Below, in pieces: positions 5,132 through 59,611 of a stretch of DNA of 64,000 nucleotides (the first letter of the stretch is position 1; the number at the start of each line of letters is the position of its first letter). The position numbers were made by a program, and so were the translations under genes. Below the pieces are notes generated by a model, which saw only the letters and a list, made by a program, of their open reading frames with translations, ran no database searches and had not been told where the DNA came from. Source of the stretch: Vicinamibacteria bacterium (GTDB lineage Bacteria; Acidobacteriota; Vicinamibacteria; Vicinamibacterales; JAENWD01); assembly GCA_963837165.1 (NCBI GenBank), contig CAWIMD010000002.1:1543029-1607028 (forward strand), read 5' to 3'.

Positions 5132-5172
5132 CCTATCCTCCTATCCTCCTATCCTCCTATTCTCCTATCCTC

Positions 5173-5187
<15 letters not shown>
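5132..5187. repeat. Family A octamer array, CCTATCCT x7 (minus strand reads AGGAGGAT)
   Basis: Read directly. The metH stop TAG (5173-5175) lies inside the array. It is followed downstream (on the minus strand) by the kinase promoter and start. Confidence 0.95.
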
Positions 5188-8910
<3,723 letters not shown>

Positions 8911-9912
8911 TTCAGTCCTTCGTGCCCTTTGTGCCCTTTGTGTTCGTCGTGCCCTTTGTGTCCCTTCGTGTTCTTCGTGTTCTTCGTGTCCTTCGTGTAC
9001 CCCTGACGCGACGATGACGGTGAACGGGTCGCCCGTCAGGCGCGCGCCCACACTGGTCCGCACGGTCGTCAGCCCCGCCTCCTTCATCAGCCGGGCCAGG
9101 TCCGCGACGTCGAAGCCGAGCCACCGGTCGCCGAAGCGCTCGCGGACCCAGGTCTCGTCGTGCGTCCGCAGGTCGAGCACCAGCACACGGCCGCCGGGCC
9201 GCACGATGCGGGTGGCCTCGGCGAGGGCGCGGGCGGGGTCGGCGGCGTGGTGCAGCGCCTGCGACAGCAGCGCCACGTCCACCGAGCCGTCGGGGAGCGG
9301 CAGGCGCTCGAGATCGGCGCGCTTCCAGGTGACGTTGGTCACCTTGCGCCGACGCGCCAGGGCGCGGGCCCGGTCGAGGACCTCGGCCGACCGATCCACC
9401 GCCACGACGCGGCGTGCCCAGCGGGCGGCTTCCACGGTCAGGTACCCCTCGCCGCAACCGAGGTCGGCCACGTCCCACGCCGGCAGCAGGTGCCCGAGCG
9501 CGCGGGCCCAGGCGGCCCAGCTGCGTCCCGGCACGAGCTGACGGCCATCGCCGTGCGTGGCGAAGCTCTCCTTCCGGAGCCGCAGCACCTCCTTGAGCCG
9601 GGCGTGATCGGCGCGGGCGGCCGGGTCCGACGCCGCCGCGGCGAACCCGGCCTCGAGCAGGGGCCAGAGCGCGGCCGGGCCCGTCCGCCGGTCGGGCGGC
9701 GGCACCTGGAACCAGGTGTAGCCCCCCTCGCGCCGCTCCTCGACCAGCCCGCTCTCGCGCAGCAGGCCAAGGTGGCGCGAGACGCCGGACTGCGCGATGC
9801 CCAGGATGCCGGTCAGCTCGGTCACGTTGAGCCGCTCGGCCGCCAGCAGCCGCAGCAGGCGGAGCCGGACCTCGTCGCCGAGCAGCCGGAACAGGGCCGA
9901 CGCGTCCTTCAC
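8911..9912 (-). CDS. ArsR/SmtB-family HTH fused to a class I SAM-dependent methyltransferase; no stop codon of its own, reads in frame through a repeat array into metH
   Basis: GTG 9912 begins [57 protein letters not shown] (ArsR wHTH). [12 protein letters not shown] (SAM motif I) follows. The domain ends around ...[12 protein letters not shown]. The nonamer array is then translated ([29 protein letters not shown]) up to the metH ATG. Confidence 0.8.
8916..8997. repeat. Family D nonamer array, 9 units (minus strand reads CACGAAGGA-type); eight 9-mers plus one 10-mer
   Basis: The plus strand reads TCCTTCGTG CCCTTTGTG CCCTTTGTG TTCGTCGTG CCCTTTGTG TCCCTTCGTG TTCTTCGTG TTCTTCGTG TCCTTCGTG. The array lies between the ArsR-MT domain and the metH ATG. 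Confidence 0.95.
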
Positions 9913-9919
9913 ATCTATA

Positions 9920-9925
9920 AATCTA
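9920..9925 (-). promoter_or_regulatory. -10-like TAGATT 7 nt upstream of GTG 9912 (ArsR-MT); leaderless geometry
   Basis: It sits in an AT-rich island (ATCTATAAATCTA) within GC-rich sequence. Confidence 0.35.
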
Positions 9926-10510
9926 CATGCGTGGATGGATTGTGGTCAAGGGAACCGGAGGGGGATCTGGGGGGCTGGGGATCTGGGGATCTGGGGGGCT
10001 GGGGATCTGGGGATCTGAGGGATCGGGGGATCTGGGGATCTGGGGGGCTGGGGATCTGGGGGGCTGGGGATCTGGGGGGGCTGGGGATCCGGGGGGGCTG
10101 GGGATCTGGGGATCTGATTTTCTCCGGAGACGTACCGTCCGACCTCGGCGCTCTTCGCTCCTGATCAGACCCATTAGTGGCGCGGCAACCTGACGGACCT
10201 GGCGCTCGAGGGCCGCCGTCGTCTCGTCCGACGTGTACCCGAGACGACGAGCGACGTGGACGTAGTAGCCGACCTCCGCGAGAGACGACCACGAGATCCG
10301 CAGAAAATGCACCGTGTCGCGGTGGTGCGATCGCGCAGTTCCTTCAACGATGTTCGCAGGGACTGAGAGCGCTGCCCGGCGCAATTGCGTACCGAGCACG
10401 AAGCGTTCATCCAAGGGAAATACTTCCTTTGCAAGACGATGCAGCCGGATGAAGAGATCGTCGGCACGCTGCCAGGCCACCAGGGAGCGATAGCGGAGTT
10501 GCTTGGGCAT
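9923..10510 (-). CDS. Four-helix-bundle protein (23S rRNA intervening-sequence protein family) with a repeat-encoded C-terminal tail
   Basis: ORF 9923..10540. The likely start is ATG 10510 ([57 protein letters not shown]...SLAEVGYY). This matches my memory of TIGR02436/PF05635. The last ~55 aa (DPQIPSPP...) are translation of the GGGGATCT array. Confidence 0.75.
9961..10115. repeat. Family B octamer array, GGGGATCT/GGGGGGCT about 19 units (G-rich on plus strand)
   Basis: Read directly. It is the inverted partner of the 10548-10664 array. Confidence 0.95.
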
Positions 10511-10547
10511 GCACCGGGGTAGCCGCAACCCTTGTGCCACCCGGCCT

Positions 10548-10664
10548 CCCAGATCCCCAGCCCCCCAGATCCCCAGATCCCCAGATCCCCAGATCCCCAG
10601 ATCCCCAGATCCCCAGATCCCCAGATCCCCAGATCCCCAGATCCCCAGATCCCCAGATCCCCCC
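10548..10664. repeat. Family B octamer array, CCCAGATC about 14 units (G-rich on minus strand)
   Basis: Read directly. It starts at the stop of the 10664..11101 gene and ends 37 nt before the four-helix-bundle start. Confidence 0.95.
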
Positions 10665-11101
10665 TACGTCCTCTCCCAGTCCGGCACCCAGCTCGTGATG
10701 GCGCGCTTGATCTGGTCGCGGGACAGGTGTTCCCGCACCGCGCGATCGACCAGCGCGGGCAGTTCGCCGTCCGAGGCGAAGCGAAGGCCCACGAGCTGCG
10801 GGATCGTCAGCTGGAGGATCTGCGGCTGCTGCGCCGCGGGCAGGACTTCCTTCAGCCGCAGTCGCATCTCGAGCCGGATGATGCGGTTCTGCAGCGCGGT
10901 GATGTAGGTCCGCGACATGCCGCCCAGCACCAGGACGGCCAGGCCCACCAGCAGCACGGCCATCGATCGCGGATCGCGCGTCGTCCACCACTGGTCGAAG
11001 ATCATGACCACGCCCGTGGTCCCGAGCGCGAAGACGAGATAGGTGAGGTACGGATGGTGTGCGTGGCGGCGGTAGGACTGGGCACGCGCCGAAGGGGACA
11101 T
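10664..11101 (-). CDS. Conserved hypothetical membrane protein (two predicted TM helices)
   Basis: ORF 10664..11119. I moved the start to ATG 11101 (MSPSARAQSYRRHAHHPYLTYLVFALGTTGVVMIFDQWW...AVLLVGLAVLVLGG). I am not confident of any family assignment. Confidence 0.6.
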   Translation of the reverse strand: MSPSARAQSYRRHAHHPYLTYLVFALGTTGVVMIFDQWWTTRDPRSMAVLLVGLAVLVLGGMSRTYITALQNRIIRLEMRLRLKEVLPAAQQPQILQLTIPQLVGLRFASDGELPALVDRAVREHLSRDQIKRAITSWVPDWERT

Positions 11102-11109
11102 GTGGTTTC

Positions 11110-11143
11110 CAATCGTCAATCGTCAATCGTCAATCGTCAATGA
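11110..11143. repeat. Family C heptamer array, CAATCGT x4 plus a partial unit (minus strand reads ACGATTG)
   Basis: It lies between the ilvA stop (11152) and the start at 11101. Confidence 0.95.
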
Positions 11144-11151
11144 ATCCCCTG

Positions 11152-12696
11152 CTAGTCGAGGAACAACCGATACGCGTCGTTCTCGAACTCCGCCAGGTAT
11201 GGGTAGCCGAGCCCGTCGAGGAACGCGCGGAAGCCGGCGAGCTGGTCGTCCGGCACCTCGAAGGCGGCGAGCACGCGCCCGAAGTCGGCCCCGTGATTCC
11301 GGTAGTGGAACAGGCTGATGTTCCATCGGCCGCCCAGGGCCTCCAGGAACTGCATGAGCGCGCCCGGGCGCTCGGGGAACTCGAAGCGGCACGGTCGCTC
11401 GTGGCGGGCGTCGCTGGCGCGGCCGCCCACCATGTGGCGGACGTGGAGCTTCGCCATCTCGTTCTCCGACAGGTCGGTGGTCGCGTAGCCCGCGGCGTTG
11501 AGCTCGGCGGCAAGCCGGGTCGCGTCTTCCCGGGACCGGGTCGCCACCCCGACGAAGATGTGCGCCTCACGGCGCCCGCCCAGGCGGTAGTTGAACTCGG
11601 TCACCACGCGGGGACCGAGCCGCGCGCAGAACTCGCGGAACGCGCCGGGCCGCTCGGGGATCGTGACCGCGAAGATGGCCTCCCGCGCCTCGCCGAGCTC
11701 CGCGCGCTCGGCGACGAAGCGGAGGCGGTCGAAGTTCATGTTCGCGCCGCTCAGCACGGCCGCCACGCGGCCGCCGGCCCCGCGGGACGCGGCCCAGGTC
11801 TTCAGGCCGGCCACCGCCAGCGCGCCGGCCGGTTCCATGATGCTGCGCGTGTCGTCGAACACGTCTTTGATCGCGGCGCAGATCTCGTCGTTGGTCACCC
11901 GGACCACCTCGTCCACGGTCTGCTGCGCGAGGGCGAAGGTCAGCGCCCCGACCTCCCGCACCGCGACGCCGTCGGCGAAGATCCCGACCTGGTCGAGCGT
12001 CACGCGGCGCCCCGCGGCCAGCGACCGGTACATCGCGTCGGCCTCGAACGGCTCGACGCCGACAATCCGGATGCCGGGCATGACCGCCTTCAGGTAGCTC
12101 GCGATGCCGGCGATCAGCCCGCCGCCGCCGACCGCGACGAACACCGCGTCGAGGCTGCGGTGACTCTGCCGCAGGATCTCGTCGCCAATGGTGCCCTGCC
12201 CGGCAATCACCAGCGGGTCGTCGAAGGCGTGAATCAGCGCCGCCCCGGTCTCGTGCTGGAGCGCCGCGCACTCGAGACTGGCCTCGGCGTAGCTGTCGCC
12301 GTGGAGCACCACGTGCGCACCCATCGCGCGGACGGCCTCGACCTTGATCTCGGGCGTGGTCTGCGGCATCACGATCGTGGCCGCAATCCCGAGCCGGCGC
12401 GCCGAGTAGGCGACGCCCTGCGCGTGGTTCCCGGCGCTCACCGCGATGATGCCCCGCGCGCGCTCGGTGTCGCTCAGGTGGGCGATCCTGTTGTAGGCGC
12501 CGCGCAGCTTGAAGCTGAACACGGGCTGCAGGTCCTCGCGCTTGAACAGGACCTCGCACCCGAGCCGCGACGACAGCCGCGGCGCCGGGTCGAGCGGCGT
12601 CTCGCGACAGACGTCGTACACCCGGCTGGTCAGGATCAGCCGCAGCATGGAATCGATGCTGGGGGCGGTCGAAGGGAGCGGTTCCTGCGAGGACAT
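11152..12696 (-). CDS. ilvA: Biosynthetic threonine dehydratase (threonine ammonia-lyase)
   Basis: 514 aa. It contains FSFKLRGAYN (PLP-Lys motif) and a PALP fold, then a duplicated C-terminal regulatory domain. The length matches E. coli IlvA. Confidence 0.9.
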   Translation of the reverse strand: MSSQEPLPSTAPSIDSMLRLILTSRVYDVCRETPLDPAPRLSSRLGCEVLFKREDLQPVFSFKLRGAYNRIAHLSDTERARGIIAVSAGNHAQGVAYSARRLGIAATIVMPQTTPEIKVEAVRAMGAHVVLHGDSYAEASLECAALQHETGAALIHAFDDPLVIAGQGTIGDEILRQSHRSLDAVFVAVGGGGLIAGIASYLKAVMPGIRIVGVEPFEADAMYRSLAAGRRVTLDQVGIFADGVAVREVGALTFALAQQTVDEVVRVTNDEICAAIKDVFDDTRSIMEPAGALAVAGLKTWAASRGAGGRVAAVLSGANMNFDRLRFVAERAELGEAREAIFAVTIPERPGAFREFCARLGPRVVTEFNYRLGGRREAHIFVGVATRSREDATRLAAELNAAGYATTDLSENEMAKLHVRHMVGGRASDARHERPCRFEFPERPGALMQFLEALGGRWNISLFHYRNHGADFGRVLAAFEVPDDQLAGFRAFLDGLGYPYLAEFENDAYRLFLD

Positions 12697-21840: not shown

Positions 21841-21915
21841 TCAACTCCCAGGTCCCAATCTCCAATCCCCGACTCAATCGTCAATCGTCAATCGTCAATC
21901 GTCAATGATCAATGG
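21841..21915. repeat. Family C heptamer array: degenerate units (21841-21873) then TCAATCG x4 plus TCAATGA and TCAATGG
   Basis: It spans from the TIGR00300 stop (21902-21904, inside the array) to 4 nt before the ferredoxin GTG (21837). Confidence 0.9.
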
Positions 21916-23152: not shown

Positions 23153-23206
23153 TACACGAGGGACACAAAGGACACGAAGGACACGAAGGACACGAAGGAC
23201 ACATCC
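23153..23206. repeat. Family D nonamer array, GACACGAAG-type x6 (plus strand)
   Basis: It lies between the two divergent TAAGAT -10 boxes (23141-23146 minus, 23220-23225 plus). Confidence 0.95.
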
Positions 23207-30760: not shown

Positions 30761-30818
30761 TCCCATCCTCCTATCCTCCCATTCTCCTATCCTCCCATCC
30801 TCCTATCCTCCCATCCCC
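30761..30818. repeat. Family A octamer array, TCCCATCC/TCCTATCC x7
   Basis: It fills the whole gap between the M64 peptidase stop (30819) and the EVE start (30760). Confidence 0.95.
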
Positions 30819-32231
30819 CTACTGCGTGAGCAGGTCGATCACCCGCGCGATCGCGTGCCGGCACACGGCACAGAACCCCACCTCGTCCCTGGTGAACATG
30901 ATGCAGTCCACCTGCGGGCGATAGTATCCGTGCGCCTCGTACCTCGCGCCCTCGAACGCAGCGACGGCGCCGGCGTAGCGGTTCGAGGCGAGCAGGCGGG
31001 TTTCCTCGGCCTGCTGCCGCCGGAAGAGCGCGTCCATCTCGGCCTCGGGACGATCGTTGGCGCGGATGGCATGCCGCTCGGCCTGAACGCCCTTCGCGTG
31101 CGCCTCGTAGGCGTCCTTGTTCCAGGGCGTGGGGATTGGCGTGCCGGGGGTGACCAGCGCCTGCCATTTCACGCGCGTCGGGTCCGTGAGGGCGGTGACG
31201 TTCGGCTCCCAGGGCTCGAGCCGGTCCGCAGCGGGCAGGTACGCGACGTCGGACGTGTAGTACTCGTCGGCGAGGCCGGCGACATGGTGCCCGAACTCGT
31301 GGACGAACACGTAGGGCGCCCACGAGCTGTCGGCCGCGACGGTGGCGTAGAGGCCGAAGATGCCGCCGCCGCCGTAGGTACCTGCGTTCGCGAGGATCTC
31401 GACCACGTCGTAGGGCGCGTAGGACGCCGCGTCGCGGAATGCCTTGTTGTCGAACGTGAGGACGTAGCGCTCGGAGCCGAACGCGTCGTAGGTGGCGCCG
31501 ATCGGCGAGCGATGGTGGATGCCGGTGGAGGGCCGCGAGATGCCCGACTCGGCGGCCGGCGGGCACAGCCCCCAGACGTTGAAGTCGGCCTTCCGCTCCC
31601 TGAACGGCGAGGTCGCGAACAGGATCTCGACGAGCCGCCTGGCGTCGGCGACGAACTTCGGCCGCTCGGCCGCGGTGTAGCCGTCGCCGAGGATCAGCAG
31701 GTCCACCTTGGAGGCCGGCGGGCCGTTCTCGAGCAGCCGGACGAGCTCGCCCGGGCTGGGCGGGGGCGCCGGGTCCACGGTGGGCGCGGACGGGTCGATC
31801 AGGGTGGACCAGACCTCGCGAAAGGCGTTGTGCGCGTCGCGTTTCTTGACCACGACCTGCACCGGGCCCGGCGGCTCGGGGAACCGGAGCGACTCGCTGA
31901 AGGTGCGGCTGGCACTGGTGGCCTCGCCCGTGGTCTCCCACTCACCGAAAATCGAGGAGAAGCCGCGCGAGTACACCACGCGGTTGGTGCCGCGGTCGAT
32001 GACCTCGACGTAATACTTGCCGAGATTGGTGTCGTCGATCGGCTTCCGGGGGTTGCCCGGCCACGGCGTCGGCTCCACGACCACGCGATCCACGGCGAAG
32101 GTCTCGGACGAGGCCGTCCCGGTGTGGTAGTAGTCGAGCCGCAGCGTGCGCACCGGATCCGGAGCCGCAGCCGCCGGGGCGAACGCCACCAGCAACGTCA
32201 TCCACGTGCCGACAATCCGTGGGAGTGTCAT
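30819..32231 (-). CDS. M64-family (IgA-peptidase-like) secreted metallopeptidase
   Basis: It has a signal peptide and the zinc site VFVHEFGHHVAGLADEYY. 470 aa. Confidence 0.8.
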   Translation of the reverse strand: MTLPRIVGTWMTLLVAFAPAAAAPDPVRTLRLDYYHTGTASSETFAVDRVVVEPTPWPGNPRKPIDDTNLGKYYVEVIDRGTNRVVYSRGFSSIFGEWETTGEATSASRTFSESLRFPEPPGPVQVVVKKRDAHNAFREVWSTLIDPSAPTVDPAPPPSPGELVRLLENGPPASKVDLLILGDGYTAAERPKFVADARRLVEILFATSPFRERKADFNVWGLCPPAAESGISRPSTGIHHRSPIGATYDAFGSERYVLTFDNKAFRDAASYAPYDVVEILANAGTYGGGGIFGLYATVAADSSWAPYVFVHEFGHHVAGLADEYYTSDVAYLPAADRLEPWEPNVTALTDPTRVKWQALVTPGTPIPTPWNKDAYEAHAKGVQAERHAIRANDRPEAEMDALFRRQQAEETRLLASNRYAGAVAAFEGARYEAHGYYRPQVDCIMFTRDEVGFCAVCRHAIARVIDLLTQ

Positions 32232-32234
32232 TCA

Positions 32235-32269
32235 ACTGCCTACTGCCTGCTGCCTACTGCCTACTGCCT
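32235..32269. repeat. Family F heptamer array, ACTGCCT x5 (minus strand reads AGGCAGT)
   Basis: The minus strand reads TGA-(AGGCAGY)x5-TGA-ATG. The array fills the gap between the ettA stop and the M64 peptidase start. Confidence 0.95.
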
Positions 32270-42540: not shown

Positions 42541-43487
42541 CGACGAGCATCGGGGTCGTGCAGATGCGGATGCGCGACGAGCTCGCCGACAACGTCGCGC
42601 GGGCGATGGCCGCCGTCCGCGACGCGCACGGACGCGGGGCGACGGTGGTCCTGCTGCCGGAGCTCTTCGAGGGCTACTACTGGCCGCAAGCGCAGCGTGA
42701 GCGGTTCTTCGAGCGCGCGCACCCGGTCGAGGGGCACCCGTTCATCCCGCGGTTCCAGGCGCTGGCGCGCGAGCTGTCGGTCGTCCTCCCACTGTCGTTC
42801 TTCGAGCGGGCGGGGCATGCCTACTACAACAGCCTGGTGATGATCGACGCGACGGGGGAGGTGCTGGGACTCTACCGCAAGTCCCACATCCCCGACGGTC
42901 CGGGCTACATGGAGAAGTACTACTTCACGCCCGGCGATACCGGGTTCAAGACGTTCGCCACTGCGGCGGGGCGGATTGGTGCGGCCGTGTGCTGGGACCA
43001 GTGGTATCCCGAGTGCGCGCGGGCGATGGCGCTGCAGGGCGCGGAGATCCTGCTCTATCCGACGGCGATCGGGTCGGAACCCGAGGCGGCCGGACCGATG
43101 GACACGAGCGCGATGTGGCAGCGCGTGATGGTCGGGCACGCGGTGGCCAACGCGTGCTACGTTGCCGCCGCCAACCGCGTCGGCACCGAGGTCGTCGAGG
43201 GAGCCGAGCAGACGTTCTACGGGCGGAGCTTCATCGCGGACTACACCGGCGCGATCGTCGCGGAGGCCGGGTTCACCGAGGAGGAGATCCTCGTGGCCGC
43301 GCTGGACCTGGGCCAGGCGCGCAGCTTCCGCGCCGGCATGGGCTTCTTCCGGGACCGCCGTCCTGACCTGTACGGCCCGCTGCTGACGTCGGACGGCAGA
43401 ACACAAAGAACACAAAGGACACAAAGGACACAAAGGACACGAAGGACACGAAGGACAGGAAGGCTCAAGACCGAAGCTGAAGGCTGA
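42537..43487 (+). CDS. aguB: N-carbamoylputrescine amidase (nitrilase superfamily) with repeat-encoded C-terminal tail
   Basis: ATGA overlap with aguA. It contains VVLLPELF...YRKSHIP...AAVCWDQWYPE (the E-K-C triad). The last ~28 aa ([26 protein letters not shown]) come from the nonamer array. Confidence 0.9.
   Translation: MTTSIGVVQMRMRDELADNVARAMAAVRDAHGRGATVVLLPELFEGYYWPQAQRERFFERAHPVEGHPFIPRFQALARELSVVLPLSFFERAGHAYYNSLVMIDATGEVLGLYRKSHIPDGPGYMEKYYFTPGDTGFKTFATAAGRIGAAVCWDQWYPECARAMALQGAEILLYPTAIGSEPEAAGPMDTSAMWQRVMVGHAVANACYVAAANRVGTEVVEGAEQTFYGRSFIADYTGAIVAEAGFTEEEILVAALDLGQARSFRAGMGFFRDRRPDLYGPLLTSDGRTQRTQRTQRTQRTRRTRRTGRLKTEAEG
43399..43461. repeat. Family D nonamer array, GAACACAAA/GGACACAAA/GGACACGAA x7 (plus strand), degenerate continuation to about 43490
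   Basis: It is translated as the aguB C-terminal tail. It lies between convergent aguB and the ABC exporter. Confidence 0.95.
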
Positions 43488-56131: not shown

Positions 56132-57811
56132 ATGACCTTCGTGCCGCTCCACCGCAGCCGCAGCGCCGCGATCACCGAGGGGCCGCACCGCGCGCCCGCC
56201 CGCGCGATGCTGAAGGCCGCCGGCTTCGATGACGAGGCCCTCCGGCGTCCGCTCGTCGGCATCGCCAACACCTGGATCGAGATCGGCCCGTGCAACTACC
56301 ACCTGCGCGAGCTGGCCGCGCACGTCAAGCAGGGCGTGCGCGAGGCCGGCGGCACGCCGATGGAGTTCAACACGGTCTCCATCTCCGACGGCATCACGAT
56401 GGGCAGTCCCGGCATGCGGGCCTCGCTCATCAGCCGCGAGGTCATCGCCGATTCCATCGAGCTCGTCTCGCGCGGCAACTGCTTCGACGCCGTCGTGGCG
56501 CTCTGCGGCTGCGACAAGACGATCCCCGGCACGACGATGGCGGTGGCGCGGCTGGGGGTGCCGGGCCTGGTCCTCTACGGCGGGTCGATTGCCCCGGGCC
56601 GGTTCCACGGTCACGACGTCAGCATCCAGGACGTCTTCGAGGCGGTGGGAGCCCACGCCGCGGGCAAGATGAGCGACGCGGACCTCAAGGACCTGGAAGA
56701 CCACGCGTGCCCGGGCTCGGGGGCCTGCGGCGGGCAGTTCACCGCCAACACGATGGCCACGGCCATCGAGTTCCTGGGCATCGCGCCCATGGGCAGCGGC
56801 TCGGTCCCGGCCACCGACGCGGGCAAGGGCGAGGTGGGCCGCCAGGCGGGACGCCTCGTCATGGAGCTGCTGCGCCGCGACCTGACCCCAGGCCAGATTC
56901 TCACGCGGCAGGCGATCGAGAACGCCATCGCGGCCGTCGTGGCCACCGGCGGCTCGACCAACGCCGTGCTGCACCTGCTCGCGATTGCGCGGGAATCCGG
57001 GCTGCCGCTCGAGATCGACGACTTCGATCGCATCAGCCGGAAAGTGCCCCTGCTGGCCGACCTCAAGCCGGCCGGGCGCTTCATGGCCACCGACCTGCAT
57101 CGTGCGGGCGGCATCCGCCTGGTGGCCCGCCGCCTGCTCGACGCCGGTCTGCTCCACGGCGACCAGCTCACGGTGACGGGCCGCACGATCGCGGACGAGG
57201 CGCGCGAGGCGGTCGAGACCGAGGGCCAGGAAGTCGTGCGGCCGCTGGATCGGCCGATAAAGCCCACCGGGGGCCTGGCGATCCTGAAGGGCAACCTGGC
57301 GCCCGCGGGCGCCGTGATCAAGGTGGCCGGCTCGAACCTGCAGCACCACCGCGGGCCCGCACGCGTCTTCGAGGGCGAGCAGCCGGCGCTCGACGCCGTG
57401 CTGCACAACCAGATCAGGCCGGGCGACGTCGTGGTCATCCGCGGTGAGGGGCCCAGGGGCGGGCCGGGCATGCCCGAGATGCTGGCCGTGACCGCCGCCA
57501 TCGTCGGGGCCGGGCTGGGCGAGTCGGTGGTGCTGCTGACCGACGGCCGGTTCTCGGGCGCCACCCGCGGGCTGATGGCCGGGCATGTCGCCCCGGAGGC
57601 CGCCTCCGGCGGGCCGATTGCCGCCGTGCACGAAGGCGACATCATCGTCTTCGACGTGCCGGAGCGCCGGCTCGACGTCGAGCTGTCGCCCGAGGAGATC
57701 GCGCACCGGCTCGCGGCGTACGTGCCGCCGGCGCCGCGCTACACGTCGGGCGTGATGGCGAAATACGCGCGGCTGGTCGCGTCGGCGGCGGAAGGCGCCG
57801 TCACGGGCTGA
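56132..57811 (+). CDS. ilvD: Dihydroxy-acid dehydratase
   Basis: 559 aa. It contains CDKTIPG and TDGRFSGATRG. Confidence 0.9.
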   Translation: MTFVPLHRSRSAAITEGPHRAPARAMLKAAGFDDEALRRPLVGIANTWIEIGPCNYHLRELAAHVKQGVREAGGTPMEFNTVSISDGITMGSPGMRASLISREVIADSIELVSRGNCFDAVVALCGCDKTIPGTTMAVARLGVPGLVLYGGSIAPGRFHGHDVSIQDVFEAVGAHAAGKMSDADLKDLEDHACPGSGACGGQFTANTMATAIEFLGIAPMGSGSVPATDAGKGEVGRQAGRLVMELLRRDLTPGQILTRQAIENAIAAVVATGGSTNAVLHLLAIARESGLPLEIDDFDRISRKVPLLADLKPAGRFMATDLHRAGGIRLVARRLLDAGLLHGDQLTVTGRTIADEAREAVETEGQEVVRPLDRPIKPTGGLAILKGNLAPAGAVIKVAGSNLQHHRGPARVFEGEQPALDAVLHNQIRPGDVVVIRGEGPRGGPGMPEMLAVTAAIVGAGLGESVVLLTDGRFSGATRGLMAGHVAPEAASGGPIAAVHEGDIIVFDVPERRLDVELSPEEIAHRLAAYVPPAPRYTSGVMAKYARLVASAAEGAVTG

Positions 57812-57862
57812 GCATTGATGATTGAGCATTGACGATTGACGATTGACGATTGGATGGATTGA
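57812..57862. repeat. Family C heptamer array in GATTGAC orientation, about 7 units
   Basis: It starts immediately after the ilvD TGA (57809-57811) and ends at the GAGGG SD of ilvB. Confidence 0.95.
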
Positions 57863-57869
57863 GGGTGCG

Positions 57870-59576
57870 ATGAAGAAGACCGGAGCGCAGATCATCTGGG
57901 AGTCGCTGCTGCGGCAGGGCGTCAGCACGGTGTTCGGGTACCCGGGCGGGGCGATCCTGCCGGCGTACGACGCGATGACGCAGTACCCGATCCGGCACGT
58001 GCTGGTGCGCCATGAGCAGGGCGCGACGCACATGGCCGACGGCTTCGCGCGCGCCACGGGCCAGGTCGGCGTCGCCATCGCCACCTCGGGTCCCGGCGCG
58101 ACCAACATGGTGACCGGCATCGCCACCGCCATGCTCGACTCCTCGCCCATCGTCTGCATCACGGGCCAGGTCGGCAGCAAGCTGATCGGCAGCGACGCCT
58201 TCCAGGAGACCGACATCACCGGCGTCACCCTGCCCATCACCAAGCACAACTACCTGGTCACGCGCGCCGACGATGTCGCGCCGACCATCCGGGAAGCGTT
58301 TCACGTGGCGGCGTCTGGGCGCCCCGGGCCCGTGCTGATCGACATCACGAAGGACGCGCAGCAGACCAGCTGCGAGTTCGACTGGGAGGCCGCCGACGTG
58401 AAGCCGCGCGGATACCGGCCCGACCACCGGCCGGCGCAGGCGGACTTCGCGAGGGCGGCCGCGATGATCGGCGAGGCCAGGCGCCCGGTCATCCTCGCGG
58501 GTCGCGGCATCATCCAGTCCGGCTGCACGGCCGAGGTGCTGGCGTTCGCCGAGCGCACCAACACGCCGATTGCGATGACGCTCCTCGGCCTCGGCGGCGT
58601 GCCCGCCAGCCACGGCATGAACCTCGGCATGATGGGCATGCACGGCGAGGCCTGGGTCAACACCGCCATCCAGGAGGCCGACCTGCTGCTGGCCTTCGGC
58701 ATGCGCTTCGACGATCGCGTGACCGGAAACCTGAAGACGTACGCGCCGCACGCGAAGAAGATCCACATCGAGATCGACCCGGCCGAGATCAACAAGAACG
58801 TGCGCGTGGACGTGGCGCTCGTCGGCGACCTCCGCGAGGTGCTCACCGAGCTGATGCCGCACGTGCCCGAGACCGAGCACGTGGAATGGCTCGCGCGCAT
58901 CCAGGAGCTCAGGGGGGATTCCGCCGTCCGGGACATCCAGAACCTCCCCGACAACGGACACCTCTATGCCGCGCACGTCATCAACGATCTCTGGCGCGAG
59001 ACCGACGGCAACGCCATCGTCGTAACCGACGTGGGCCAGCACCAGATGTGGGAGGCGCAGTACTACAAGCACAACACGCCGCGGTCGCTGGTCACCTCCG
59101 GCGGCCTCGGCACCATGGGCTTCGCTCTGCCCGCGGCCATCGGCGCCAAGATCGCGCGGCCAGACGCCGAGGTCTGGGTCGTCGTCGGTGACGGCGGCTT
59201 CCAGATGACGATGTGCGAGCTGGCGACGGTCGCCCAGGAGAGCATCGACATCAACGTCGCCATCGTGAACAACGGCTACCTGGGCATGGTCCGGCAGTGG
59301 CAGGAGTTCTTCTACGAGAAGCGGTACGCCGCCACGCCGCTGGTCAACCCGAACTTCACCAAGCTGGCCGAGGCGTTCGGCCTGACGGGCATCACGGTGA
59401 CGCGGCGGAACGAGGTGGTGCCCGCCGTGCGCGCCGCCCGCAACCACCGCGGCGGCGTCGTCATCGACTTCCAGGTGGAGCAGGAAGACTCGGTGTACCC
59501 GATGGTGCCGGCCGGAGCGGACCTGCACGCGATGATCCGCCGGCCGAGCCCGATCGTGGAAACGGCTGCCGATTGA
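57870..59576 (+). CDS. ilvB: Acetolactate synthase large subunit (biosynthetic, ThDP-dependent)
   Basis: I moved the start to ATG 57870 (MKKTGAQIIWESLLRQGVSTVFGYPGGAILPAYD), with GAGGG upstream. It contains GGLGTMGFALPAAIGA and GDGGFQM. Confidence 0.9.
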   Translation: MKKTGAQIIWESLLRQGVSTVFGYPGGAILPAYDAMTQYPIRHVLVRHEQGATHMADGFARATGQVGVAIATSGPGATNMVTGIATAMLDSSPIVCITGQVGSKLIGSDAFQETDITGVTLPITKHNYLVTRADDVAPTIREAFHVAASGRPGPVLIDITKDAQQTSCEFDWEAADVKPRGYRPDHRPAQADFARAAAMIGEARRPVILAGRGIIQSGCTAEVLAFAERTNTPIAMTLLGLGGVPASHGMNLGMMGMHGEAWVNTAIQEADLLLAFGMRFDDRVTGNLKTYAPHAKKIHIEIDPAEINKNVRVDVALVGDLREVLTELMPHVPETEHVEWLARIQELRGDSAVRDIQNLPDNGHLYAAHVINDLWRETDGNAIVVTDVGQHQMWEAQYYKHNTPRSLVTSGGLGTMGFALPAAIGAKIARPDAEVWVVVGDGGFQMTMCELATVAQESIDINVAIVNNGYLGMVRQWQEFFYEKRYAATPLVNPNFTKLAEAFGLTGITVTRRNEVVPAVRAARNHRGGVVIDFQVEQEDSVYPMVPAGADLHAMIRRPSPIVETAAD

Positions 59577-59611
59577 TCATTGACGATTGACGATTGACGA
59601 TTGACGATTGA
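59570..59611. repeat. Family C heptamer array, CGATTGA x6
   Basis: The first unit supplies the ilvB GAT TGA stop (59574-59576). The last unit runs into the AAGGA SD of ilvN. Confidence 0.95.

Follow-up and report, generated by a model that had tools for sequence, protein, structure and literature searches.

Proteins of the SahR type reportedly combine an ArsR-type helix-turn-helix (HTH) with a C-terminal sensor domain of the S-adenosylmethionine (SAM)-methyltransferase fold, an architecture that Novichkov et al. are said to have set out in 2014. SahR and SamR are ArsR-family, S-adenosylhomocysteine-responsive, autoregulated repressors of SAM-cycle genes including metH, and ATC-10 nt-GAT has been reported as their common operator consensus (PMC4239095); autoregulation was also reported in a study in which sahR measures 1023 nt (PMC8877191). 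Among described repeats, the closest are the short tandemly repeated repetitive (STRR) heptamers of cyanobacteria, whose function is unknown and for which effects on transcript stability or translational coupling have been proposed (PMC2670836); heptamer repeats are also found near start codons in Nostoc (bioRxiv 10.1101/2022.06.06.494920), and a part in regulation is a further suggestion for repeats of this kind. The locus described here lies in a 64,000-nt stretch of a Vicinamibacteria contig (CAWIMD010000002.1), hereafter the window, in which a SahR-like regulator gene runs through a tandem array of 9-nt units into metH and forms with it a single open reading frame (ORF). We assign a probability of about 0.68 to the reading that a recent 1-nt insertion, or a misaligned unit junction, in one array of a genome-wide repeat family yielded this fused ORF as a species-specific and undesigned event, with MetH still made mainly from its own start.

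The ORF begins at a GTG at 9912 on the minus strand, ends at 5173 and encodes 1579 amino acids, the regulator running unbroken into MetH in the ORF list and its translation. Between the two proteins lies the array (8997-8916, minus strand), which comprises nine units and 82 nt of the nonamer family CACGAAGGA (sense strand) by direct reading and by Tandem Repeats Finder (TRF); the latter reports it at 8915-8998 with period 9, 9.2 copies and 2% indels. Read by hand in the sense direction, units 1-5 are cacgaagga, cacgaagaa, cacgaagaa, cacgaaggga and cacaaaggg, and units 6-9 are cacgacgaa, cacaaaggg, cacaaaggg and cacgaagga. Eight of the nine measure 9 nt; the fourth, cacgaaggga (8961-8970, minus strand), is the sole 10-nt unit, and the additional base in it brings the regulator ORF into frame with metH.

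The CACGAAGGA nonamer is free of stop codons in all six frames, so that an ORF entering the array must read to its end, and the position of the regulator stop is fixed solely by the phase in which the ORF leaves the array. Because one 10-nt unit shifts that phase, the regulator ORF misses the TGA of an ATGA (8907-8910, minus strand) and continues to 1579 amino acids. Translation of the neighboring frame beyond the 10-nt unit shows a TGA at 8909-8907 that overlaps the metH ATG at 8910-8908; it lies in the +1 frame with respect to the sequenced regulator ORF, and the stop/start overlap is absent from the frame that is read. The third frame through the array stops at a TGA at 8914-8912. An earlier sequence-only reading of this DNA had claimed that the regulator has no stop of its own, that it reads through a nine-unit array into ATG 8910 to give 1579 amino acids, that eight units of 9 nt and one of 10 nt make up the array, and that one base separates the fused ORF from an ORF terminated at ATGA. 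The first two of these claims are exact by sequence, ORF list and translations; the unit lengths are borne out by hand reading, and the single base by the frame translations. Although the 10-nt unit is the obvious site of the frame-shifting base, others are possible, and any -1 change within 9003-8911, such as one in the GGGG run at 9002-8999, would restore the ATGA stop. The tail that links the two proteins (8911-9003, minus strand) has 31 codons, reads the array in two successive frames and is unconserved, as judged from its translation, its codon index and the tails of homologues. An Rfam scan of 8000-11500 with E up to 1 detected neither a riboswitch nor any other RNA of a known family at the junction.

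The portion that starts at ATG 8910 (5173-8910, minus strand) is metH, a cobalamin-dependent methionine synthase of 1245 amino acids. NCBIfam models match it strongly (PRK09490, 1984 bits; TIGR02082, 1664 bits), and all five MetH Pfam domains are found at residues 353-1554 of the 1579-residue ORF. Orthologues of MetH start 11-16 codons, occasionally more, before the motif ILVLDGAMG, and ATG 8910 agrees with this spacing. A Shine-Dalgarno (SD)-like AAGGA, read directly in the last array unit (8916-8920, minus strand), is placed 5 nt upstream of the ATG and would act as the metH ribosome-binding site.

Orthologous junctions were compared in 80 genome and 80 metagenome loci that encode regulator relatives, 135 of which could be classified; a protein-guided scan of Joint Genome Institute (JGI) metagenome contigs, with a best match of 78% identity and hence no contig of the same species, served only to enlarge the orthologue set. 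In all 135 loci metH lies directly downstream of the regulator. The two genes overlap as ATGA at 52 junctions, and a further 22 show other overlaps (TGATG or TAATG at 10, a longer overlap at 12). Spacers of up to 30 nt separate them at 38 junctions and spacers of more than 30 nt at 22, and at the one that remains (locus L079) the regulator runs on in a different frame. None of the 135 is an in-frame fusion of regulator and MetH. The ATGA stop/start is the family norm and the commonest ancestral arrangement of the regulator-metH pair, and the window retains the ATGA. The proposal that the regular phase of the array corresponds to ATGA coupling, for which orthologues had been named as the comparison to make, is therefore upheld by these counts.

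Repeats at this junction are found in other genomes as well. CACGAAG-type arrays with units of 8, 9 and 10 nt occupy it in nine other loci of Vicinamibacteria (L011, L016, L017, L023, L031, L037, L038, L053 and L069), and irregular units of 8 and 10 nt occur there in the metagenome-assembled genomes (MAGs) L031, L037 and L038. A second repeat-disturbed junction is that of L079 (2779-3877), a locus of a different Vicinamibacterales MAG, where the regulator ORF, having run into a (GGGGGCC)n-type array, continues for 366 codons across the metH start in another frame. The spacers of L023, L031, L037, L038 and L053 carry CACGAAG-type arrays and then inverted copies (CTTCGTG...), so that long hairpins would fold in the interval from regulator stop to metH start; the CACGAAG-type array of the window lacks an inverted partner.

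A second strain bears on whether the tenth base is real. The exact 1579-residue protein is found in a public protein collection, in a cluster of two whose second member differs at 3 residues. The second strain, L081 (ENA ERZ25039539, contig_27592), is a 441-kb contig that also carries the 1579-residue ORF and was assembled separately from the 1.71-Mb contig of the window. Over a 16.7-kb alignment the two differ by 22 substitutions per 10 kb (0.2%), a 1.65-kb insertion and copy-number differences in octamer arrays, and L081 is therefore a different strain. The nonamer array has the same length in both. Its sole difference is a G-to-C change at 8962 within the 10-nt unit (cacgaaggca in L081; CACGAAGGGA vs CACGAAGGCA), which is synonymous in the fusion frame, and the changes between the strains in the regulator part are synonymous only. 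No one-base indel separates the assemblies in the 10 kb around the junction, and the window contains about 46 tidy genes in its 64 kb with no obviously split gene, ilvA (514 amino acids) being intact. A miscall in the GGG homopolymer was considered as the source of the extra base and down-weighted: L081 reads GGCA there rather than a G run, so that a G-run miscall does not explain the base. From these comparisons the 10-nt unit is probably real DNA. The sequence-only reading had offered slippage or sequencing error as the origin of the irregular unit. Error appears unlikely given an array of the same length in L081 that differs only by the G to C inside that unit, and slippage is not supported, since the frame stays the same when 9-nt units are gained or lost.

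The contrary case is that the extra base is an assembly or base-calling artefact, and that the true genome has nine 9-nt units, or one base fewer elsewhere in 9003-8911, and keeps the genes separate and ATGA-coupled. We consider this unlikely, and it has the following in its favor, all of which weighs against a real fused ORF. In this family ATGA coupling is the norm, and in-frame fusion is absent from all 135 orthologous junctions; a HMMER search with a 501-residue junction-spanning query likewise returned no clean full-length regulator-MetH fusion from 1.84 billion representatives. If real, the fusion is rare and may be selected against. Both assemblies look long-read, judged from contig names and sizes, and L081 shows local indel errors (17 one-base insertions in ilvA and, in another array, a difference of C6 against C7). 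Within ~1 kb the window and L081 differ at a single base, which falls exactly on the irregular unit, and the position may be prone to error. A close relative, represented by a short-read contig with 1 mismatch in 186 nt, has the regular 9-nt CACGAAGGG at this place. That contig, of 198 nt, was the one informative contig recovered from Logan, where many matches came from unrelated loci with the same repeat; in it CACGAAGGG is followed directly by CACGAAGAA (...CACGAAGGG and then CACGAAGAACAC), a different unit order, and the contig ends inside the array. Public runs cover the species poorly, the best containing 0.15 of the sampled words, and no Nanopore run is listed. Against an artefact stand the agreement in array length between two independent assemblies of different strains, the GGCA of L081, the lack of obviously broken genes in the window and of one-base indels in the surrounding 10 kb, and the 8- and 10-nt units assembled at the same junction in other MAGs. 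A 70-nt Logan contig that resembled a regular-unit allele was discounted (5 mismatches in 49 nt, probably another array), and an exact-pattern scan of JGI metagenome contigs for either allele (GAAGG-N0-1-ACAC...) gave no match.

The upstream gene has a conserved body of 303 amino acids from the GTG at 9912 (9004-9912, minus strand), delimited by Pfam, NCBIfam and homologues. Pfam places HTH_5/HTH_20 at residues 11-60 and Methyltransf_11/25/31 at residues 147-253. The N-terminal domain is an ArsR-type winged HTH (HTH_5, 8.9e-10; NCBIfam NF033788, HTH_metalloreg, 69.6 bits against a cutoff of 55), and the NCBIfam matches of the regulator include no SahR model. The order of HTH and methyltransferase fold is that of SahR, and the size is consistent with the 1023-nt sahR (PMC8877191). 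Homologues number 6804; the best 120, from soil metagenomes, are all stand-alone proteins of 295-366 amino acids, with a best identity of 87% and one named Vicinamibacterales among them. The alpha-3 metal site of ArsR is the cysteine pair of the motif ELCVCDL (CXC). In the translated regulator these positions hold N and T in place of cysteine, the alpha-5 site not having been examined in detail. No association with metal resistance or homeostasis genes was found in the window or in the 135 classified loci, where the downstream gene is metH, itself a SAM-cycle gene.

Upstream of the regulator's own gene is a predicted operator, the palindrome-like ATC-N10-GAT (ATCCACGCATGTAGAT; 9921-9936, minus strand), which occurs once in the window and is conserved: 68 of 82 upstream regions of orthologues have it at a fixed distance, vs 4% of background windows. 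It overlaps a -10-like TAGATT, 8 nt before the GTG. This hexamer is part of a putative sigma-70-like promoter, TTGACC-18-TAGATT (9920-9949, minus strand), for which a consensus scan gave 1 site where 0.1 was expected; its TTGAC is kept in orthologues, and the element would function as the promoter of both genes. The orthologous regions share TTGAC...ATC-N10-GAT-TTATAGAT, flush against the regulator start codon. A near-identical geometry (window 9913-9949) is seen in most of about 50 orthologues, and the position of the -10-like element 8 nt from the start codon suggests that the mRNA of the sahR-like/metH operon is leaderless or near-leaderless, as a conserved property. Because of the synteny with metH, the conserved ATC-N10-GAT operator and the missing CXC site, the regulator looks, by context, like a SahR-like SAM-cycle regulator and not a metal sensor.

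This assignment bears directly on a proposal in which the array encodes a functional histidine-rich metal-binding tail, of (H-x-x)9 form, on an ArsR/SmtB metalloregulator, and repeat instability toggles between a tailed, coupled state and a fused state in the style of a contingency locus. The sequenced state does encode a short His-containing HEx stretch in the tail by translation, one relative (P0060/L083) carries an HEGHEG tail that ends ...QHEGHEGQTNGKQH at its stop codon and overlaps metH by 17 nt, and the array differs among close strains. The N and T at the CXC positions and the SahR-like context and operator argue against a metal site, as do the tails themselves. After the residues ASG they are hypervariable in 120 homologues and 135 loci, where P0060/L083 is the only one with a His-rich tail, and none of the tails in 68 metagenome junctions has at least three histidines. 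From genome to genome the reading of the repeat changes between T-K-x, R-R-T and H-E-G, and the same array is present where nothing is coded. The codon adaptation index is 0.71-0.80 for gene bodies; in the sequenced tail it is 0.215 for the HEG part and 0.063 for the TQRARR part, it is 0.27 for the hypothetical HKG frame and 0.22-0.27 for the His-reading frames, and only the T-K frame of the repeat looks codon-adapted. The linker contains 17 very rare codons, 7 of them Arg AGG or CGA. Since the tails are unconserved, the His frames codon-poor and the same array intergenic elsewhere, the HEx codons appear to be a by-product of the repeat and not a metal site, and the His-rich metalloregulator tail of the sequence-only reading is not supported. 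A contingency switch is disfavored further by the 9-nt unit, a multiple of three whose copy number cannot shift the frame, and by an array length that is the same in two strains while other arrays vary. Taken whole, the proposal is highly improbable.

Nearly as improbable is a fused ORF that serves a purpose, either as a bifunctional SahR-MetH or through programmed frameshifting that would return some ribosomes to the ATGA stop and give both products. The state is common to two strains whose regulator parts differ only by synonymous changes. SD-like motifs stimulate frameshifting, as in prfB and dnaX, and the linker offers SD-like AAGGG/AAGGA motifs together with its 7 rare Arg codons among 17; AAAGGGC also matches the X XXY YYZ slippery pattern formally. 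Only the frame with its stop at TGA 8914-8912 has the A AAG GGC heptamers in phase, while the frame in use reads CAA AGG GCA and offers no good re-pairing site, which makes programmed frameshifting unlikely; it was rejected on this ground. The linker is repeat sequence without sign of selection, and the search for full-length fusions speaks against a bifunctional protein: its junction-spanning matches P0126, P0140 and P0149 were not accepted as fusions, being fragments that drift between frames.

We therefore return to the undesigned frameshift as the best explanation; the regulator-metH fusion is probably real and ordinary in kind, a modest, lineage-specific accident. In the mechanism that we propose, regulator and metH would form a conserved operon, apparently autoregulated and normally translationally coupled, with transcription from the promoter that the operator overlaps. 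The regulator ORF would normally terminate at or near the metH start, and in this species a presumably recent one-base irregularity in the stop-free repeat would put it into the metH frame. MetH would be initiated mainly and independently at ATG 8910 through AAGGA-N5-ATG. Ribosomes arriving from the regulator would cross the 17 rare codons and give some regulator-MetH fusion, presumably in low yield, in place of free regulator; 9-nt slippage would be unable to toggle between the fused and the separate state.

The array at the junction belongs to a family that is scattered over the window. The two-unit pattern CACGAAGNNCACGAAG, allowing up to 2 mismatches, has 18 matches in the window vs 0.53 expected, a number that none of 100 shuffles reaches, and 7 of the 18 fall in the regulator/metH array. 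TRF finds dozens of short tandem arrays in the whole window, 22 of them non-overlapping with period 6-10 and at least 3.5 copies, mostly in spacers. Most belong to four recurring families, namely the nonamer CACGAAGGA, the octamers GGGGATCT and TCCCATCC and the heptamer TCAATCG, and several heptamer units are confined to single loci. On a simple gene map of the window, based on G+C content at third codon positions (GC3), most arrays sit in short spacers between genes and often exactly fill them. Nearly every short co-directional spacer is filled in this way, for example 5132-5185, 11110-11141, 21874-21913 and 30761-30821, as well as 32235-32269, 57809-57852, 59570-59611 and 61279-61323. The sense strand of the arrays is often SD-like (AGGAGGAT, GGGAGGAT) or contains TGA/TTG (ATTGACG). 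Similar arrays occur at ~2 per 10 kb across 84 related loci, 50 of which have at least one. The window thus shows the STRR-like combination of a few 7-9-nt families at many, mainly intergenic, places.

Two further nonamer arrays, located by pattern scan, illustrate both placements. One (23154-23202, plus strand; also found by TRF) is intergenic and lies 30 nt upstream of ATG 23232, which opens a 550-residue ORF that by eye, from its translation, is probably a GMC-type oxidoreductase. This intergenic array and the one at 8998 begin with a shared GGGTACAC lead-in, which hints at templated spread rather than local slippage. The other (43401-43457, plus strand) is, by translation, the RTQ/RRT C-terminal tail of an unrelated 316-residue enzyme ORF, probably a carbon-nitrogen hydrolase by the same kind of inspection, and this is a second ORF that has absorbed an array. 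Literature searches found no earlier description of the array pattern in Acidobacteria. Extending these observations, the 7-9-nt arrays might be more than junk and constitute a lineage-wide system in Vicinamibacteria, comparable to the cyanobacterial STRR repeats, in which SD-like sites, stops or stop-free linkers furnished by the arrays would build the junctions between genes of an operon. Small irregularities in the arrays would make C-terminal tails variable and would now and then fuse neighboring genes by read-through, as in SahR-MetH, with a possible rewiring of SAM-cycle autoregulation in this species. We regard this broader idea as unlikely.

Other features of the locus were seen along the way. 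A heptamer array GGTGCGG (~9 copies, 63 nt; window 7855-7917, minus strand) lies inside metH, where it encodes the linker between the homocysteine and pterin domains and is in frame only as 9 x 7 = 63; L081 has one substitution there, P to H. In L081 (1415-3100, corresponding to window 11152-12696) ilvA, encoding threonine dehydratase, is split into three called genes, with the insertions mostly in GC-rich (GCG-type) contexts and ~3% substitutions, and represents either a local assembly error or a decaying or recombined allele. A small ORF of lower G+C content occupies window 9923-10662 (minus strand) between inverted octamer arrays, (GGGGATCT)n at 10548-10662 and (AGATCCCC)n at 9961-10116. 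It encodes 205 amino acids (10540..9923) and reads on through the second octamer array. Its L081 counterpart matches PF05635 (23S rRNA intervening sequence / four-helix-bundle protein), and the additional 1.65 kb of that strain is located here. The region has the appearance of a small mobile cassette directly preceding the regulator promoter.

Two consequences follow for annotation and for regulation. A 1579-residue "ArsR-methyltransferase-MetH" annotation should not spread as a new bifunctional enzyme or metal sensor, and the locus would add Acidobacteriota to the lineages with an autoregulated sahR-metH operon of the SahR type and an ATC-N10-GAT operator. The array-littered genome is a more interesting lead than the fusion and merits a systematic survey, as spacer-filling, strain-variable arrays that are stop-free or stop-rich and are absorbed into protein tails could plausibly give rise to variation at gene ends and to apparent fusions in MAG catalogues.

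Compared with the systems described above, the regulator resembles SahR and SamR in its ArsR-type HTH followed by a methyltransferase-fold domain in about 305-340 amino acids, in the position of its gene beside metH and in the ATC-N10-GAT upstream of that gene, which fits autoregulation. It differs in belonging to Acidobacteriota (Vicinamibacteria-like) and not Proteobacteria, in an operator that abuts the start codon of a transcript that looks leaderless, in an overlap with metH (ATGA) in many relatives and in the in-frame fusion to metH in this genome. Like ATGA-coupled gene pairs, among them the 52 orthologues that use ATGA as stop and start, the junction contains an ATGA; unlike them, its TGA is out of phase, so that termination-reinitiation is impossible and ribosomes would read into metH. 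As in other fusions of adjacent genes, the upstream stop is lost through a single-base change, and two complete genes come to be joined by a short linker that was formerly a spacer, but here the linker is a tandem repeat of very rare codons, metH keeps an intact start codon and a putative ribosome-binding site, and the fusion is seen in one species only. The arrays share with STRR sequences their short head-to-tail units (7-nt class), their few sequence families and their genome-wide scatter, mostly intergenic and near start codons. They differ in having units of 7, 8 and 9 nt in an acidobacterium of 70% G+C, in that many are purine-rich and SD-like on the sense strand, and in a 9-nt family that is free of stops and is consequently absorbed into the tails of ORFs.

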